From an uncultured archaeon (GTDB lineage: Archaea > Asgardarchaeota > Thorarchaeia > Thorarchaeales > Thorarchaeaceae), in assembly GCA_964590575.1 (NCBI GenBank), contig CAZPWM010000003.1, positions 4,587 through 68,586 on the forward strand: a stretch of 64,000 nt of DNA. The letters are read 5' to 3'. Of this stretch, positions 2,606 to 43,520 are shown piece by piece (position 1 is the first letter of the stretch; each line of letters starts with the position of its first letter). Below the pieces are notes generated by a model. It was not told where the DNA came from. It saw nothing but the letters and a program-made list of their open reading frames with translations, and made no database searches. Both the position numbers and the translations under genes were made by a program.

Positions 2606-2684
2606 TAAACCTATTCAACGTTGTAATGAAGGTTGTGAATAGCTGCTCAAAAGTTGGACGTTCTTGAACATTTATTCATCGGTG

Positions 2685-2693
2685 TTTATATAA
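2685..2693. promoter_or_regulatory. TATA box (TTTATATAA), possibly bidirectional
   Basis: Near-palindromic AT box. It is positioned to drive the minus-strand gene at 2605 and a plus-strand transcript starting near 2715. Confidence 0.55.
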
Positions 2694-2712
2694 TCCGGAT
2701 AGAACTGTAAGG

Positions 2713-2922
2713 TGTGGAGTTAATCTAGGACAAAAACCAAGTCCATGAACTATCTCTGCTGTCGCCGCGAGTTGCACGGAGACTGAAAACGCCTGTTGGA
2801 GAGGCCGTTAGACATCAAAGACCGTGGGCCTGAGATGCAGCTTCGATGAAGCAGGAACCGAACATCAATCATGGAGTGTGATTTCCGAGTTTGAATAAGT
2901 TTCGGACAACGGTATTCATCCA
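2713..2922 (+). ncRNA. candidate structured ncRNA, short member of an unknown family (RNA-2)
   Basis: No credible ORF, TATA box upstream, terminal GTGGA/TCCAC pairing, several hairpins with G-U pairs on +, and 5-6 blocks shared colinearly with 7680-8170(-). Confidence 0.55.
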
Positions 2923-2931
2923 CGAAGGAAT

Positions 2932-3663
2932 TCAGAGTATCTCCAAAAGGTCTTTGATGTGCCCAATCACAACAGTGTCTGATGATATTTTCTCCTCCTC
3001 CTGAGGGTCGCACCATGTCAAGAGGATTGGGATCATTCCTGCACGTGTTGCAGCTACAACATCGTACTCCACGATGTTTCCAACATACGCACATCTGTGT
3101 GGATTTGTACCAAAGGCTGCAGCAACCTTCACAAGCATGTAAGGCGACGGTTTTCGATATCCTGGGACATTAGTATACTCTACAACATCAAAAAAGTGGT
3201 GAATTCCAGCGGTCTCAAGATGTTGAGTTGGGTCAGTGAACCTGTTTGACGCGATTCCAAGTTTGAATCCACGCCGCTTCAACTCTTCAAGACCCTCTGT
3301 GCAGCCCTTCATAAGTTCATGACTAGCTATCTCATGAAAGCTGTTCCATTCTTTTTGATAGTCCAGCACGACATCTTCGCGGTCTTTCACTCCCAAGGCT
3401 GCCAAGAGTCTTCTATCATACTCGATCCAGTGCTCAAGCTCTGGTTTCCAATGACTACCAACATCATTCTCCATCATGTAGCTATTCAACCACGCATCGG
3501 GTTCTTTGGTGGCAGCTAGAATGTCTGCATCTGAAAAATCACCACTCTCCCCTAGTTGTACATTATTCAGAAAGTTTCGAGTGAGACCGCACATGTCTGA
3601 AACTGTTCTAAAGAGAGTCCCTCCCAGATCGAAGATTATTCCAGTTATACCTTCCAACTTCAT
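2932..3663 (-). CDS. HAD-superfamily hydrolase
   Basis: FDLGGTL (motif I variant), IASN, RKPSP, YVGN...D..AA..AGM. Confidence 0.88.
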   Translation of the reverse strand: MKLEGITGIIFDLGGTLFRTVSDMCGLTRNFLNNVQLGESGDFSDADILAATKEPDAWLNSYMMENDVGSHWKPELEHWIEYDRRLLAALGVKDREDVVLDYQKEWNSFHEIASHELMKGCTEGLEELKRRGFKLGIASNRFTDPTQHLETAGIHHFFDVVEYTNVPGYRKPSPYMLVKVAAAFGTNPHRCAYVGNIVEYDVVAATRAGMIPILLTWCDPQEEEKISSDTVVIGHIKDLLEIL

Positions 3664-3767
3664 GACCTCAAAACATCAGACATACACACACAAGTATTAA
3701 TCGCAATGTGCTTTGTCAGGCATCTCAAATCTTTTCAATGATAAATTATCTCAATGAGTGACGAATT

Positions 3768-4922
3768 ATGGATTCTGTTGACGCCTCCTTGAGAGCAGTG
3801 GGTAAGCATCTTGAGGCTAACCCAGATGATGCCTCTGCCTGGAATGCAAAGGGAGTCTTCCATGCTCAGAAGAGAGAGTTTGGAGAAGCTCTCCGGAGTC
3901 TTGACCGGGCATTGCAATTGGATTCTAATCTTGCATCAGCTCATACCAACCGTGGCCGCGTTTTGCTAGCACTAGGACCAGAAAAAGCAAATGATGCACT
4001 CAAATCGTTTGACACTGCATTGAAACTAATGCCAGACGATGTTCAGATTTTACATGATAAAGCCTCGGCTCTTCATGCCCTAGGGCGTACTGAAGAAGAA
4101 CTTGCCAGTGTCAGAAGAATCAGTGAGCTAGCTCAGAATGAGTGGGGTGTTTTGGTTCGTATTGGGGACATCGAACTAGAACTTGGTCACTTTGAATCCG
4201 CAATAAAGAATTATGACACAGCTCTTGGATTGAAGGATGATTTGGTTCCAGCATATATTCGCAGAGCAATCGCCTTCGGTATGTTAGAGCAGTGGAAGGA
4301 TGCAATAAAGTCTGCAGAGACCGCTACTAATCTAGAGCCAGAGAATTCAGAGGCTTGGCTCATCCGTGGTGATGTAAACCTTAGAGCTGGAAAGCACAAT
4401 TCTGCCATGAAGGCTCTAAAGAAAGCCTCAGAATTGGATCCAGAAGATGCCTCTGTAGAGAATACGATGGGCATGGTAGCATACAAAGATGGCAAGCTTC
4501 AGGATGCAGTTAAACACCTTCGAAGAGCTGTCCTCCGAAAGAAAGAGTATCCTGCTGCATTGCGAAACCTCGGACTTATCCTCATGGAGCTAGAGGAGTG
4601 GGCAGAAGCAGTGAAGGCTTTTGAAAGTTATACATCCTATGTGAAGGACGACCCCGACATGTATGATGCGAAATCCACGGCATATGCACGCATAGATGAT
4701 TTCTGTTCTGCTGTTGACGGATGGGAGCGAGCACGTAAGTTGTATAAGAAAGCTGGTGATGATGCTGAAGCAGACAGGGTTTCTGCACTTGGCCGTGCAG
4801 CGCGTATAAACTGTAATCGCTTGAAGAAAGCAGAAAAAGAACAACGCGAGCATGAAAAAACACAGAGACGATTTGCAGATCGTTATAACCTGAGACGGAA
4901 GAAAGACAAACGTAAGCGATAA
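3768..4922 (+). CDS. tetratricopeptide-repeat protein
   Basis: Multiple 34-aa TPR units (AWNAKG...A...D.AL.L, AHTNRG, AWLIRG, ALRNLG) and a basic C-terminal tail. Confidence 0.92.
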   Translation: MDSVDASLRAVGKHLEANPDDASAWNAKGVFHAQKREFGEALRSLDRALQLDSNLASAHTNRGRVLLALGPEKANDALKSFDTALKLMPDDVQILHDKASALHALGRTEEELASVRRISELAQNEWGVLVRIGDIELELGHFESAIKNYDTALGLKDDLVPAYIRRAIAFGMLEQWKDAIKSAETATNLEPENSEAWLIRGDVNLRAGKHNSAMKALKKASELDPEDASVENTMGMVAYKDGKLQDAVKHLRRAVLRKKEYPAALRNLGLILMELEEWAEAVKAFESYTSYVKDDPDMYDAKSTAYARIDDFCSAVDGWERARKLYKKAGDDAEADRVSALGRAARINCNRLKKAEKEQREHEKTQRRFADRYNLRRKKDKRKR

Positions 4923-4923
4923 G

Positions 4924-5229
4924 CTAGCTTGAGAACCTGTAGGCCTCATCAGCCCCCTCAAAATCGCCCAGCTTTGTGAGTATGTTTCCGATTCTCTTCC
5001 AAGCTTCCTTATGGAATGGATTAAGCTTGACTGTTGAACGATATGCTGCAGCTGCTGCAACATTGTGTCCCTTCCACTCCAATAATTTTCCATAGGAGAA
5101 CCATCCCTCTACATCATCGGGTCTTTCTAATAGTAACATACCCATCATGTCCATTGCAAGTGTTGGGATGAACGGGACTGTAAGTGCCAAGAATATGCTG
5201 ACAGCAATTATTGTGAGTAGAGGAAGCAT
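4924..5229 (-). CDS. small membrane-anchored TPR protein
   Basis: N-terminal hydrophobic helix followed by two TPR-like units (GWFSYGKLL, AWKRIGNIL). Confidence 0.7.
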   Translation of the reverse strand: MLPLLTIIAVSIFLALTVPFIPTLAMDMMGMLLLERPDDVEGWFSYGKLLEWKGHNVAAAAAYRSTVKLNPFHKEAWKRIGNILTKLGDFEGADEAYRFSS

Positions 5230-5250
5230 AACAAACTATATTCTATTCAA

Positions 5251-6063
5251 TCACTTTTCTACTTTGTCAAATACTAGTGATTTAAGAAAAATGTCAATTC
5301 CAAATCGCCCTTTTGTCATCTCAAGGTACCATGGACCAGTCAGTTCGAGTGTCTCTTGTATTTCTGATATTGTCTTGCCCTCCTTGTGCAATTTCTGCAC
5401 TTGTGTCCGAATGTCTTTGAGAAAATTAATTCTGACTTGGACGTGCTCCTTTGGTGATGTGACTGGTCCTCTATGAGAGTCGAAGAGAATTTCAATTTCC
5501 ATCTCTGCAATCTTCTCAAGTGTTTCGATCATGAGATGAATATTCTCATCTGGCATACCAATTACCTTTCGAGATGGTACTGGAACAGCATCAGCAGAGA
5601 ACAGCCATTTGCGATTTGGCTCATAGAATCCAACCATTTGATGCCCATGACCTGGGAGTGAAACAACCTCAAATTCGAGGTCTCCAATGTTGAACTGTAG
5701 GGGCATCTTTTCGACTTCTGCTACAGGTTTTGGCTGTCCCCAAACAAAATCAAAGAATTCCGGAATGGTTGGCGGGTTCTTGATGATCTCAATGTCTTCT
5801 TCCATAGCATATATTGTTGAGTGGGGTGTGAAGGCGGAACATCCTCCATAATGGTCTTCATGTGCATGACTGATATAGATCTTATTGACCTCGGTCTTAG
5901 CTGCAAACTTCTCTGTGTCTTCAAGAGCATTTGCACACCCTGCATCAAAGAGTGTGTCTTTGATGAGGTACGCAATAGCCCACATGATAGGTTCTCCATC
6001 CTCCATTGCTGTTGCGGTCTTGACAAGGGTCACGTCATCGTTGTAGCGTTCCACTTCAAACAT
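5251..6063 (-). CDS. metallo-beta-lactamase-fold hydrolase
   Basis: SHAHEDH, PGH, FSAD, DSH metal-binding motifs. Start reassigned to ATG 6063 (MFEVER). Confidence 0.88.
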   Translation of the reverse strand: MFEVERYNDDVTLVKTATAMEDGEPIMWAIAYLIKDTLFDAGCANALEDTEKFAAKTEVNKIYISHAHEDHYGGCSAFTPHSTIYAMEEDIEIIKNPPTIPEFFDFVWGQPKPVAEVEKMPLQFNIGDLEFEVVSLPGHGHQMVGFYEPNRKWLFSADAVPVPSRKVIGMPDENIHLMIETLEKIAEMEIEILFDSHRGPVTSPKEHVQVRINFLKDIRTQVQKLHKEGKTISEIQETLELTGPWYLEMTKGRFGIDIFLKSLVFDKVEK

Positions 6064-6106
6064 AAGACATGCGCATGCAATGCATAACTTGATTCCTTCG
6101 GTATAG

Positions 6107-7237
6107 CTATACCATGACCTTTCTCTCAACAAGTATTGGTGGTGCAAAATTACGGAGTCGTTTCAAGCCCAGGAACTTGTCCTGTCTTCCCACTTTGGAG
6201 TCCATCAGGGCTTGCTCCATGTAGTCGATTGCTTTGTCATAGTCCTTTCGTGGGACTGGAAATGGTACTCCATCTTTCCCCCCAAATGCAAAACACATTC
6301 TCACAGGGTCCGCCCAGGATGCAGGTGATCCAAATATCATCTCTGAGATGAGCGACAGACCTCTTACGGTAGCAGGACCTACTCCTTTCATGAACAGAAG
6401 ACTCTCGTAATCAGATGGTTGGGTTTCATAGGCGCGTCGAACTGCATCCCAGTCCATTCTTGTGGGCAAAACCTTGTAGGCTGGCAAATCTTGAGCAGTA
6501 CCATCACCTTCTATCCAAGGGATGAGCGTGGATTGGCCATACGACTTGATATCCTCAAAGTACCTTCTAACCCGGGCTGGGTCCTCCTTGATAATATCTA
6601 AACTGACCTCTCTACAAGCCTCAGATTTTCTAGAGGTCATATCCAAGGCTCCATCCTTAACCTCCCCTGAGATGAGTCCTGAGTGTGGTTCATCGATGAA
6701 ACTATCTGTGATAAAAGAGGACCAGTGATAGCGTCTTGCATCATTACTGTCACTGTCCATTCCCTGTTGAACCACTGTCCAGTTCTCTTCCGAATCTACA
6801 AAGAACATATGTTGGTAGAGATTGTATCCATCCTGAATACCTGCATTATCAACTTTGGCAACTAATCTACTGATGTCTACTAAGCCTGCACCATCAAGAC
6901 CATAGTCTTCGAGAGCTCGAAGCTCTGCTGGAACCTTCCTAGAGGCCATCCCCTTCCCTCCGATTCCAATCATTCCATGACTCTCGAAGTCTAGAGCAGT
7001 CTTCAGGACTCCACAGGTGACAGTCGTAGATCCTGAACTGTCCCAATCATAACCAAGAACGTTGGATAGTGCTTGGAACCAAACAGGATCTGCTAGTCGT
7101 TGCAAAAGTTCAAATGTGCCAAACTCATCCACTATGAATTCGCAAAGTGAACGGGCCATAGGAATCATCCGTTTCACTAACCAGTGAGGTGCCTTCCCAG
7201 GATGCAGTTTGAGGTCTGCCACGCCGCCTCTTTTCAA
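6107..7237 (-). CDS. DUF763 family protein
   Basis: ADLKLHPGKAPHWL, DWDSSGSTT, AKVDN..QDGY.LY, GVGPATVRGL, FAFGGKDGVPFPV. TTG start at 7237 follows GGAGATG. Confidence 0.9.
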   Translation of the reverse strand: MKRGGVADLKLHPGKAPHWLVKRMIPMARSLCEFIVDEFGTFELLQRLADPVWFQALSNVLGYDWDSSGSTTVTCGVLKTALDFESHGMIGIGGKGMASRKVPAELRALEDYGLDGAGLVDISRLVAKVDNAGIQDGYNLYQHMFFVDSEENWTVVQQGMDSDSNDARRYHWSSFITDSFIDEPHSGLISGEVKDGALDMTSRKSEACREVSLDIIKEDPARVRRYFEDIKSYGQSTLIPWIEGDGTAQDLPAYKVLPTRMDWDAVRRAYETQPSDYESLLFMKGVGPATVRGLSLISEMIFGSPASWADPVRMCFAFGGKDGVPFPVPRKDYDKAIDYMEQALMDSKVGRQDKFLGLKRLRNFAPPILVERKVMV

Positions 7238-7293
7238 AACGACATCTCCAATGCAATGTACCGGATTAACATAGATAAGGACCACAGATACTC

Positions 7294-7641
7294 CTAGAGT
7301 GCAGCGCGAATCTTCTCTAGTTCTTGTTTCAATTCATCCCCAACATGCGAAAGCCACCTTTCTAGAGTGTCACATCCATAATCATCACAGTGAGCACAGG
7401 TTTCTACACCCCGTGCACTTGCGCAAGATTTGACACTACACTCACTACAGAACTTAAATTTGGGTTCAGCATCAACCTTACATCCCACACAGTTGATTTC
7501 CTCTTCTGAAATTGGATAATCAGGACTTCCCCATTCGGCAGCCTGTTTCTTACGTAATTCATCATCATCGGTTTTCCAAGCGACATGAGCTGGACACACT
7601 GCACAGTCAAGTCCACAATACGCACGCATGCTCTCGGTCAT
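7294..7641 (-). CDS. DUF3795 family Cys-rich protein
   Basis: YCGLDCAVCP, CVGC, CSECSVKSC, CAHCDDYGC. ATG at 7641. Confidence 0.88.
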   Translation of the reverse strand: MTESMRAYCGLDCAVCPAHVAWKTDDDELRKKQAAEWGSPDYPISEEEINCVGCKVDAEPKFKFCSECSVKSCASARGVETCAHCDDYGCDTLERWLSHVGDELKQELEKIRAAL

Positions 7642-7679
7642 GTTTAGCCACAGTGTCCAAGTGGAATATAAGCACAACA

Positions 7680-8170
7680 GATACCCGAAACTACTTCTAA
7701 GGCAACGTTTGGAAAAACTGCAGTTCAAGCAATCCTTTTCTGACCTGAATCTCAATGTGAGTGAATCACAACTTCACGAAACTTCTGTGTTCCACCCCTC
7801 TCTTGCCAGTGTCACCACCTTTCGAAACCCAGGGGATTTCAAGATTAGCAAGAGCATTGTCAACGTTCATCGGGATGGGATCCCTCCTGCAGACCTGGCT
7901 TCCTTCTCCTGTATTGATGTTGGTTCATCACTTCCAACTGCAGTGAGCTTTTCCACAGTTCTTACCACGGCGAGGTCATTATCACTCATCTTGGAGTCGT
8001 CACCGAAACCAAGAAGGTTCCCTTGAACAGAGTGAACAGCCGCGGACTCTCTGGAACTTGATGTCGGTTCCTTTTTTGAGAGTAGGAACTTCCCTCTGAA
8101 AGTGCTCCATCGGGCTTTCAGTCGCTGACTTCGGGTCTTCTCTAAGACATTTGTCAGCATACTTAGTTCC
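7680..8170 (-). ncRNA. candidate large structured ncRNA, long member of an unknown family (RNA-1); 5' end may extend to about 8300
   Basis: At least eight hairpins or junctions, two GUGA (GNRA) tetraloops, G-U wobbles mostly on the minus strand, and colinear blocks shared with 2713-2922. The overlapping ORF has no recognisable protein features. Confidence 0.6.
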
Positions 8171-8388
8171 TTCATAGTATTCTTTGTTGCTGGATGCATA
8201 TTAGCCCATACTTTTTTCTCCTCCCCGTCTTACTATTCCCCCACTATCGTCACCAGTATTAGCATTCAATGACTTAGTCACGAATCTTGATAACTCTCGT
8301 GAATCCTCAATCCTTTTATTCTTAATTCACTAGACTCACCTGTTGGTGAATTCCAACAGAATTCTTTCGTATCTATGAGATGGTACAT

Positions 8389-8955
8389 ATGTCTGAAGAT
8401 GCAGTCTGGAAAAATGCAATTGAGTATACGCAATTTCTGAAAGGTGCGCGTGAGAATGTAGAAATCATGAAAGCGAGATATAATGATCTTCAGATAACTG
8501 AACAAGATCTTGAACATCTTCGCAGCCTTCAGAATAACCTCCGGATACTTGTCATTGGCACTGACCGGTGTAATGATACCGCTGGCAATGTACCTATTCT
8601 AGCCAAAATGACTGCAATCTCATCCAAATTGCAGTTACGTATTCTTGACAGTGATGCCAATGCAACATATCATCAGCAGTTCAAGGTCAACGGAAAGAGG
8701 AAGACCCCTGTTGTACTCTTTCTAAATGAAAAGCATGAAGAGCTGTGTCGATGGGTCGAAAGGTCAAATGCTGCTTACAAGGTAATCAATGAGGGGACGA
8801 ATCCATCCTTAGAGCGCCGACAGAAGGAGCTAAAGACACTATACAGCGACCCGGAGATTCAACGACAGAGCGTGAAGGAGTTCTTGGGTCTAATACTTAG
8901 GGCCGATTATATTCTAGGAAGAGCTAAACATGGTACACCCTCAAGGGAAGGCTGA
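8389..8955 (+). CDS. thioredoxin-fold protein (Thioredoxin_9-like)
   Basis: ILVIGTDRCND..GNVP.LAK, RKTPVVLFL, RWVER. Confidence 0.8.
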   Translation: MSEDAVWKNAIEYTQFLKGARENVEIMKARYNDLQITEQDLEHLRSLQNNLRILVIGTDRCNDTAGNVPILAKMTAISSKLQLRILDSDANATYHQQFKVNGKRKTPVVLFLNEKHEELCRWVERSNAAYKVINEGTNPSLERRQKELKTLYSDPEIQRQSVKEFLGLILRADYILGRAKHGTPSREG

Positions 8956-43007: not shown

Positions 43008-43085
43008 GGGGCCGTAGTCTAGCATGGATAAGGCACCAGCCTCCGGAGTTGGTAATCCCCGGTTCGAATCCGGGCGGTCCCGCCA
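43008..43085 (+). tRNA. tRNA-Arg(CCG), CCA encoded
   Basis: Acceptor stem GGGGCCG/CGGTCCC, anticodon arm CCAGC-CTCCGGA-GTTGG, T arm CCCGG-TTCGAAT-CCGGG. Confidence 0.96.
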
Positions 43086-43442: not shown

Positions 43443-43520
43443 GGGGCCGTAGTCTAGCCTGGATAAGGCACCAGCCTGCGGAGTTGGTAATCCCCGGTTC
43501 GAATCCGGGCGGTCCCGCCA
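43443..43520 (+). tRNA. tRNA-Arg(GCG), CCA encoded
   Basis: Same cloverleaf as 43008, with anticodon loop CT-GCG-GA. Confidence 0.96.

Follow-up and report, generated by a model that had tools for sequence, protein, structure and literature searches.

Two intergenic insertions in a 64,000-nucleotide (nt) stretch of DNA from an uncultured Thorarchaeota archaeon (assembly GCA_964590575.1, contig CAZPWM010000003.1, positions 4,587 to 68,586; this whole stretch is called the window, and positions are counted within it) are probably miniature non-autonomous elements that have lost their tnpB gene and kept the guide-RNA scaffold and the right end of the parental transposon. The short element (2631..2910, plus strand) and the long element (7740..8307, minus strand) would represent two TnpB lineages, and we propose that both act as guides in trans. 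This reading is carried by the polymorphism of the insertions, their homology to the 3' ends of tnpB genes, a conserved and covarying structure, a sharp right end, and purifying selection on the scaffold of copies that lack TnpB. On this reading, the two elements are stand-alone omega RNAs (TnpB guide RNAs), a kind of RNA that has already been described, and not a new class. A preliminary description of the same DNA had taken 2713-2922(+) and 7680-8170(-) for the minimal and the expanded copy of one undescribed family of non-coding RNA (ncRNA). Among the functions it offered (ribozyme, ribonucleoprotein (RNP) scaffold, regulator or non-autonomous mobile RNA), the scaffold and the mobile RNA came close to the mark, as these are non-autonomous elements that keep the guide scaffold of TnpB.

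Both loci are polymorphic insertions

The genes around the elements are archaeal and include those of DUF763, DUF3795, and the primase large subunit (PriL). With DUF763 as an anchor we fetched 33 syntenic loci (related loci are given L numbers), nearly all labelled Thorarchaeota, across which gene order is kept. The spacer upstream of DUF3795 measures about 160 nt in the 11 Thorarchaeota genomes with an intact empty site, and is about 570 nt longer in the window and in L003. The extra DNA, 568 nt in the window and absent from L004-L013, L031, and L032, is bounded by a 10-nt direct repeat, AAAAGGATTG, which is single-copy in the empty sites and there follows directly on GAAT. The comparison of filled and empty sites, together with a repeat search, places the left copy of the repeat at 8308..8317 (minus strand), and the GAAT directly before it (8321-8318, minus strand) is a possible target-adjacent motif (TAM). 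L015 has a long-type element at a different site.

The E-to-D spacer, which separates the HAD hydrolase gene from its neighbour, tells the same story for the short element: 12 related genomes have some 50 nt here, and the window has 326 nt. The additional 280 nt (2631-2910) split a conserved palindrome, GATGAATACC|TTCATTAC (GTAATGAA|GGTATTCATCC on the plus strand), in the middle. A GG dinucleotide is common to both junctions, which leaves the boundaries ambiguous, and nothing beyond this GG is duplicated; the shared dinucleotide fits the crossover of a recombinase without being proof of it. Because related Thorarchaeota genomes have empty sites or short spacers at these places, both loci are polymorphic insertions. 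Both regions are intergenic, and the short copy is antisense to both of its neighbours, as the preliminary description had said.

The palindrome itself, GATGAATACCTTCATTAC (2605-2931 in the window and the equivalent spacer in L002-L034), is conserved across Thorarchaeota, and it could normally be a terminator, a promoter, or a binding site. Members of both families have inserted at its midpoint and point in opposite directions: the short type in the window, and a long-type element at the same point in L015.

The long element keeps the 3' end of a tnpB gene

The long element contains an intact frame of 102-110 codons (8199/8175-7867), here called ORF1. A scan of metagenomes with an alignment of this frame returned at least 187 long-family relatives, 80 loci of which were fetched, and some of the contigs hold two copies. 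About 78 of 84 copies have kept ORF1 intact; among the 74 distinct copies, there are at least 21 in which it forms the in-frame C-terminal tail of a protein of 540-600 amino acids (aa). This protein matches the Pfam Cas12f1-like TNB domain (44 bits, cut-off 26.3) and NCBIfam guided_TnpB (E=1.7e-25), with a TnpB core that stops near residue 480. ORF1 is thus the tail of a TnpB, since it is continuous with a full TnpB in at least 21 loci. In the window the relic of this tail occupies 7867..8181 (minus strand) and ends in a TGA stop codon at 7869-7867 (minus strand); residues 486-591 of the 591-aa TnpB of L051 match 8181-7870 in tblastn with 56% identity (E=4.6e-26). The preliminary description had stated that indels break any reading frame, and so it missed this one.

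About 45 copies of the long family, the window's included, are without TnpB and have only its last 102-140 codons left. When 36 such mini-elements were aligned against 27 full-length copies, the former proved to share a 5' region, TTGTAYGAGYTCATATACTC, in which a TATA-like box precedes the scaffold by about 35 nt; in this place, full-length tnpB genes read ..ACGCTCACAAAGTCAC... The box of the window copy, CTAATATGC (8196..8204, minus strand), is a putative promoter. To its left lies a filler (8218..8307, minus strand) with a TCACGA...TCGTGA hairpin, which is not conserved: it cannot be aligned with that of the orthologous L003 element and differs in every mini-element.

Conservation in the long family sets in near AUGAGAGGACUAGG (8175 in the window) and reaches about 130 nt beyond the stop of TnpB, where it breaks off abruptly at ..AGGTYAK; from there on, the 66 aligned copies are unrelated. 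The right end of the window copy reads ..GGTCAG at 7740, which gives a scaffold of about 436 nt (7740..8175, minus strand). Runs of 20-40 nt are invariant among the 66 copies. RNAalifold predicts 106 consensus pairs from this alignment, 48 of them compensatory in at least one sequence; e.g., columns 239-258 are UA in 26 and CG in 26 sequences, and columns 179-197 are GC in 22, AU in 22, and GU in 18. Pairs are canonical in 97% of cells, against 38-44% in controls with shifted partners, and 36 are compensatory in at least two sequences, against 8-14 in the same controls. The window copy retains 94% of the consensus pairs. One near-invariant hairpin, CA-GGA-GGGAU-CCC-AUCCC-GAUGA-ACG (7864..7889, minus strand), has the sequence pattern of a kink-turn (k-turn) and is supported by consensus pairs 361-382 and 366-378. 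A hairpin that adjoins the right end holds the motif GGTTCACTCAC of the long family, which in the window takes the form GATTCACTCA (7758..7767, minus strand; family motif GTTCACTCA).

The codon positions of ORF1 show little of the pattern of a protein-coding gene: nucleotide diversity is 0.153, 0.143, and 0.183 at positions 1, 2, and 3, with a dN/dS of about 0.56, and it is equally flat in an apparent second frame, ORF2. Because the fold covaries and there is no excess of change at third positions, the long conserved region is the scaffold of a TnpB omega RNA. Its anatomy is also that of an omega RNA, since it overlaps the 3' end of tnpB, stops at the right end of the element, and is followed by the flank. 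In the window this flank, AAAAGGATTGCTTGAACTGC (7720..7739, minus strand), begins with the right copy of the direct repeat (its first 10 nt) and is, from what is known of TnpB biology, the predicted guide. No second GTTCACTCA motif, which would have been a sign of a mini-array, was found beyond the flank. Scans of viral contigs with the ORF1 alignment and with a long-family DNA pattern returned nothing. The long elements have no terminal inverted repeats, and their ends share a short direct similarity instead. Taken together, the sequences suggest that the long element comes from a Thorarchaeota lineage of TnpB of about 590 aa, whose scaffold overlaps the last 105 codons or so and continues for about 130 nt past the stop.

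The short element points to a second TnpB lineage

Homologues of the 280-nt insertion were found by nhmmer in L113 (E=3e-22; 4633-4925), in L049 (4609-4307; L049 and L050 are one contig region fetched twice), and, in part, in L032. They are 70-77% identical to the window copy, and common to them are a TTTATATA box and a right end that reads ..TTYGGRCAAC and then GGT. The TATA box of the window copy, TTTATATAA (2685..2693, plus strand), is conserved in every member of the family and may be its promoter. The link to TnpB came from L117, found by a pattern scan of viral contigs, in which positions 141-289 of the family profile match (E=1e-16) and overlap the 3' end of a gene for a 449-aa TnpB with the right end ..AAGTTTCGGAGAACGG. 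This protein scores 331 bits with guided_TnpB, 320 with the IS200-type and 316 with the IS607-type model. The 3' 138 nt of the short copy are 82% identical to the L117 tnpB 3' end over 119 aligned nt, and a relic peptide of such a TnpB tail, AASMKQEPN, is kept.

This homology and a consensus fold of three sequences delimit a predicted omega-RNA scaffold of about 195 nt (2715..2910, plus strand). At the gathering threshold of Rfam, the scan that the preliminary description had proposed detects only two tRNAs in the window; a permissive scan gave one lead, a weak match to RAGATH-18 (RF03064) at 2792-2857 (plus strand). At the homologous position, the window (21.1 bits), L113 (25.3), and L117 (26.4; E=0.018) all have RAGATH-18 as their best Rfam match, whose core k-turn/E-loop nucleotides, CCUGU.GGAG and CGAUGAAGCAGGAA, are matched in all three. 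In the window this k-turn module reads CCUGUUGGAG ... CGAUGAAGCAGGAA (2792..2857, plus strand), and it is followed by a 3' hairpin, CCGAA...UUCGG, and the right end ..AAGTTTCGGACAAC (2858..2910, plus strand), the latter conserved in L113, L049, L032, and L117. The consensus fold of the three full sequences comprises the module and the 3' hairpin and has few compensatory pairs; one clean change, in the hairpin of L049, turns CCGAA/UUCGG into CCAAA/UUUGG. Conservation in the family stops after ..CAACGGT, and the host flank that follows, GGTATTCATCCACGAAGGAA (2911..2930, plus strand), is the predicted guide. The short element would therefore, by its sequence, belong to a lineage of ordinary TnpB of about 410-450 aa. 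A variant of about 200 nt in L032 (4076-4281) has the ends of the short family without the k-turn module, and it interrupts the coding sequence of DUF763.

Proposed mode of action and the case for decaying relics

We infer transcription, a supply of TnpB in trans, the identity of guide and TAM, and homing from the features above. Each element would be transcribed from its own TATA-like promoter, and the transcript would fold into the scaffold and read through past the right end into some 16-20 nt of host flank, which would serve as the guide. Full-length copies at other places in the genome would supply the TnpB that binds this RNA in trans, and the complex would cut DNA with the target-adjacent motif and the sequence of the flank, i.e., the unoccupied insertion site. 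Recombinational repair would then keep the element or copy it anew.

A number of points speak against this interpretation. First, Pfam searches on eight mid-size open reading frames and tblastn with the L051 TnpB revealed no full tnpB gene within the window, and only the tail relic. Second, the frames of the TnpB tail and of ORF2 (about 40 codons) are open in more than 90% of the copies, and it is possible that small products are translated from the long element. Third, 436 nt is long for an omega RNA, and part of the scaffold could serve another purpose. Fourth, all matches to RAGATH-18 are under the gathering score of 44.9, and the short family has only 4-5 members, with a structure that rests on few compensatory changes. 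Fifth, the direct repeats of 9-11 nt that flank the long family (see below) are a poor fit to IS200/IS605 and IS607 elements, which affects the mobilising enzyme and the exact logic of homing.

Both loci might instead be dead relics of transposons, derived from TnpB and yet no longer making a functional RNA in this genome, which we regard as unlikely. The missing tnpB gene and the small size of the short family would agree with decay, and so would the departures of the window long copy from the family consensus at some conserved positions (e.g., GGAACTAAG where the family has GGACTAGG) and the eight consensus pairs broken in the window or in L003. However, the scaffolds of the window and L003 are 81% identical over 436 nt with three gap columns, whereas the filler of the same element cannot be aligned and the four-fold degenerate sites of DUF763, DUF3795, and PriL are 39-48% identical between the two. 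The TnpB-less scaffold is therefore under selection. Furthermore, eight pairs differ between these copies by changes on both sides that keep the pairing, and the TATA-like 5' region shared by the roughly 45 TnpB-less copies is missing in the full-length ones. In the case of the window's long copy, these observations fit a functional stand-alone guide RNA better than a relic in decay. The copies of the window and L003 could have arrived at the same site by homing and not by descent; even then, filler and scaffold are parts of a single element and differ so strongly in conservation that they must be differently constrained.

Constraint on the RNA and not on the protein

The open frames raise the question of whether the long element could be a small protein-coding cassette, with ORF1 (102-110 aa) and ORF2 (about 34-42 aa) joined by an ATGA stop/start overlap and with a nucleotide conservation that reflects recent spread. 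Apart from the integrity of ORF1 in most copies, the points in its favour are that the window, L003, and L015, the first three homologues, share two open frames in which every indel is a multiple of three, and that ORF2 stays open over about 40 codons in 62 of the 66 copies. The idea is nevertheless very improbable. Neither frame has the excess of third-position changes, ORF1 is simply the tail of TnpB and belongs to no Pfam family, and 36-48 base pairs covary. The ATGA overlap is the GAUGA of the invariant k-turn, which holds both the stop codon and the ATG of ORF2, so that its conservation is explained without translation. Although neither frame is closed in most copies, we gave up a coding role for ORF1 and ORF2 on the grounds of dN/dS and of the diversity at the three codon positions. 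The constraint on the stretch that encodes the TnpB tail acts on the RNA, not on the protein. The preliminary description had named eroded protein-coding sequence as an outcome that would undo its RNA family; both copies do overlap relics of tnpB 3' ends, but the constraint is at the level of the RNA.

Relationship between the two copies

The sequence blocks numbered 0 to 4 on which the preliminary description had based its alignment are present exactly where it placed them, and both loci do carry structured RNA modules. The colinearity of these blocks is another matter. A chained local alignment of the two copies scores 51.5, against a mean of 35.4 (standard deviation 5.3) for 1037 other stretches of 491 nt in the window, three of which reach 51.5 or more. 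We found no match between the short and the long copy with blastn-short, none of the long-family nhmmer profile to the short copy even at E<100, and none of the short-family profile to the long copy. Blocks 0 and 1 (GAACTA..TGCTG and GACTGAAA) are specific to the window and not conserved in the relatives of the short copy, and block 4 (GAACC.AACATCAAT) and the GATGGAG of block 1 lie in variable hairpins of the long family. Block 5 of the long copy (AGTTTCGG..GTAT, 7691-7680) is host DNA upstream of DUF3795 that is conserved in 11 genomes without the element. The local hairpins drawn around G(A/U)UGGAG involve pairings that neither the family alignments nor the Rfam model support.

The motif that the copies do have in common was not aligned: it is a k-turn, GGAG ... 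CGAUGAA, at 2798-2801 and 2844-2850 in the short copy and at 7887-7884 and 7872-7866 in the long one, about 230 nt downstream of the block that had been taken as equivalent. The block alignment is largely a product of chance, and with two families from two TnpB lineages paralogy of the copies is not supported; by their sequences they appear to be related only in class. The novelty claimed for them does not hold either, as omega RNAs and reRNAs, including stand-alone ones without a nuclease, have been described (PMC10691335, PMC11061315). Hence, although the two copies are structured, contain this k-turn, and do not match Rfam at the gathering threshold, it is hardly credible that they are the minimal and the expanded paralogue of one new cellular ncRNA family (a ribozyme, regulator, or RNP scaffold) unrelated to transposons, given that their similarity is at chance level, that the proposed blocks are not conserved within either family, and that each locus is an insertion which varies between genomes and has homologues in the 3' ends of tnpB genes.

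Direct repeats and mobilisation of the long family

The unusual detail of the long family is its flanking direct repeats. The 9-11 nt that directly follow the right end recur at the left boundary in the window/L003 insertion (8317-8308 and 7739-7730 in the window), in both copies of L067 (2930/3434 and 4652/5201), and in L057 (2865/3457), and in these four insertions the left repeat follows on GAAT or AGAT. L015 has GAAT and a repeat of 4 nt. Units that contain TnpB are also flanked by repeats, of 9-10 nt, in L055 (1267/3446) and L064 (639/2812), where they are 2173-2179 nt apart, and in L100 (1946 nt). Overall, repeats of 9-11 nt flank at least seven independent insertions of the long family. 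Classical IS200/IS605 and IS607 elements are not known to make target duplications of this kind.

Most full-length tnpB loci of the long type have a conserved, divergently oriented upstream neighbour that encodes more than 700 aa (e.g., L051:1-1394(-), L073, and L115:7001-8878). It has no match in Pfam and no sequence match in the PDB, and its AlphaFold model was unusable (mean pLDDT 41). In L055 its frame lies outside the unit bounded by the repeats. Every copy is cut by contig ends, and the available proteins (P0001-P0011) have a GRGRID...EPF.I.DLKTK stretch that resembles the motif of PD-(D/E)xK nucleases. We raise, as a tentative and rather doubtful proposal, that the long family is an undescribed type of Thorarchaeota transposon, which would combine a TnpB of about 590 aa and an unusually long k-turn scaffold of about 436 nt with a mobilising enzyme, for which the neighbour of more than 700 aa is a candidate, that duplicates 9-11 nt of the target beside GAAT. 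The dozens of promoter-bearing, TnpB-less copies of such a family would be selected as a dispersed library of trans guides.

In L051 (3440-3617) and L048 the flank directly past the right end of a full-length element of the long type reads GGGCCGGTAGATTAG. This is almost identical to the 5' end of a tRNA gene (L051:3545-3617) that lies some 100 nt further downstream, and suggests that the element went in at the tRNA gene or close to it and that part of the gene was duplicated.

Other features of the neighbourhood

Related loci contain further insertions of 1-3 kb, between the genes of DUF763 and the MBL-fold hydrolase and between genes M and J, which we considered as insertion sequences and rejected, as they are ordinary genes (membrane proteins and a DNA-alkylation repair protein). 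Extra genes of this size separate DUF763 from the MBL-fold hydrolase gene in L003 (11161-13290), L004, L018, L033, and L034; those of L003, the one locus inspected among them, encode membrane proteins. The DUF763 and MBL-fold hydrolase genes overlap in the window. An open reading frame of 79 codons (8278-8517, minus strand) is antisense to the start of a thioredoxin-like gene (8380-8955) and is probably not a gene, its weak tblastn matches in relatives arising only from the conserved N-terminus of the thioredoxin-like protein. Finally, two nearly identical 75-nt tRNA genes (43008-43082 and 43443-43517, plus strand) lie 435 nt apart and differ, within the alignments shown, in the D-loop and the anticodon loop (CUCCGGA and CUGCGGA).

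Significance

The analysis removes a false lead, in that there is no new class of cellular ncRNA here, and in its place provides two Asgard guide-RNA scaffolds absent from Rfam, with their boundaries, structures, and cognate TnpB proteins. These may be of use for the annotation of Asgard genomes and for the mining of compact RNA-guided nucleases. The long family is also a clear example of how the constraint on an RNA can override that on a protein at an overlapping gene end. Lastly, it gives evidence that selection maintains guide elements devoid of a nuclease, which bears on the origin, from transposons, of dispersed guide libraries and ultimately of CRISPR-like arrays.

Comparison with known systems

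The palindrome-associated transposable elements (PATEs) and miniature inverted-repeat transposable elements (MITEs) that stem from IS200/IS605 are short non-autonomous derivatives that keep the ends of the element and lie in intergenic DNA. Both families studied here resemble them in being intergenic (in L032, inside a gene) and in keeping the element ends. Unlike PATEs and MITEs, they retain a whole guide scaffold and a putative TATA-like promoter, and the direct repeats of the long family resemble target duplications: PATEs have a short target motif and no duplication of the target site, which is not what the repeats of 9-11 nt at seven or more long-family insertions look like. The likeness to canonical omega RNAs of IS200/IS605 (e.g., ISDra2) concerns the scaffold, which overlaps the 3' end of tnpB and lays an RNA constraint on coding sequence, ends at the right end, and has the guide in the adjacent flank; the sense-overlapping transcripts of archaeal IS1341-type tnpB genes are alike in the same respects. 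In contrast to the canonical omega RNAs, the long-family scaffold measures about 436 nt, and not roughly 130-250 nt, covers a tail of about 105 codons beyond the TnpB core, and comes with flanking repeats of 9-11 nt.

In IS607 TnpB systems, RAGATH-18 makes up the core of the reRNA scaffold (PMC11061315). It agrees with the short copy in the core nucleotides (CCUGU-GGAG ... CGAUGAAGCAGGAA) and in the k-turn, and the right end of the short copy lies about 53 nt downstream, near the 3' flank of about 60 nt of reRNAs. The differences are that the short family reaches 21-26 bits, under the gathering score of 44.9, that the L117 module overlaps the coding end of tnpB, unlike IS607 reRNAs, which are described as lying apart from the reading frame, and that no serine recombinase or TnpA was seen, with an L117 TnpB that is as much IS200-type as IS607-type (320 and 316 bits).

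Within Asgard archaea, tnpB loci linked to aCas1 (Cas1H-Asgard-1 and -2) are 'often flanked with repeats' and have a GTTCACTCA motif downstream of tnpB (PMC10691335). The long family has Asgard hosts, the same motif downstream of tnpB, and flanking repeats. For its neighbour of more than 700 aa, neither Pfam nor a PDB sequence search gave a match that would mark it as a Cas1, and there is no hypervariable stretch before GTTCACTCA; the copies become variable some 30 nt beyond the motif, at the right end.

The closest counterparts are the stand-alone omega RNAs of OMEGA systems (TnpB/IscB), which have been described as acting in trans (PMC10691335). The two Thorarchaeota RNA families differ from these in being absent from Rfam, their action in trans is predicted, and no cognate TnpB is encoded in the 64-kb window. 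What they have in common is the mobilisation of a scaffold and a transposon end without a nuclease or transposase gene; stand-alone omega RNAs share their genome with full elements and take their guide from the flank past the right end (PMC10691335), which is the arrangement that we propose for both elements.

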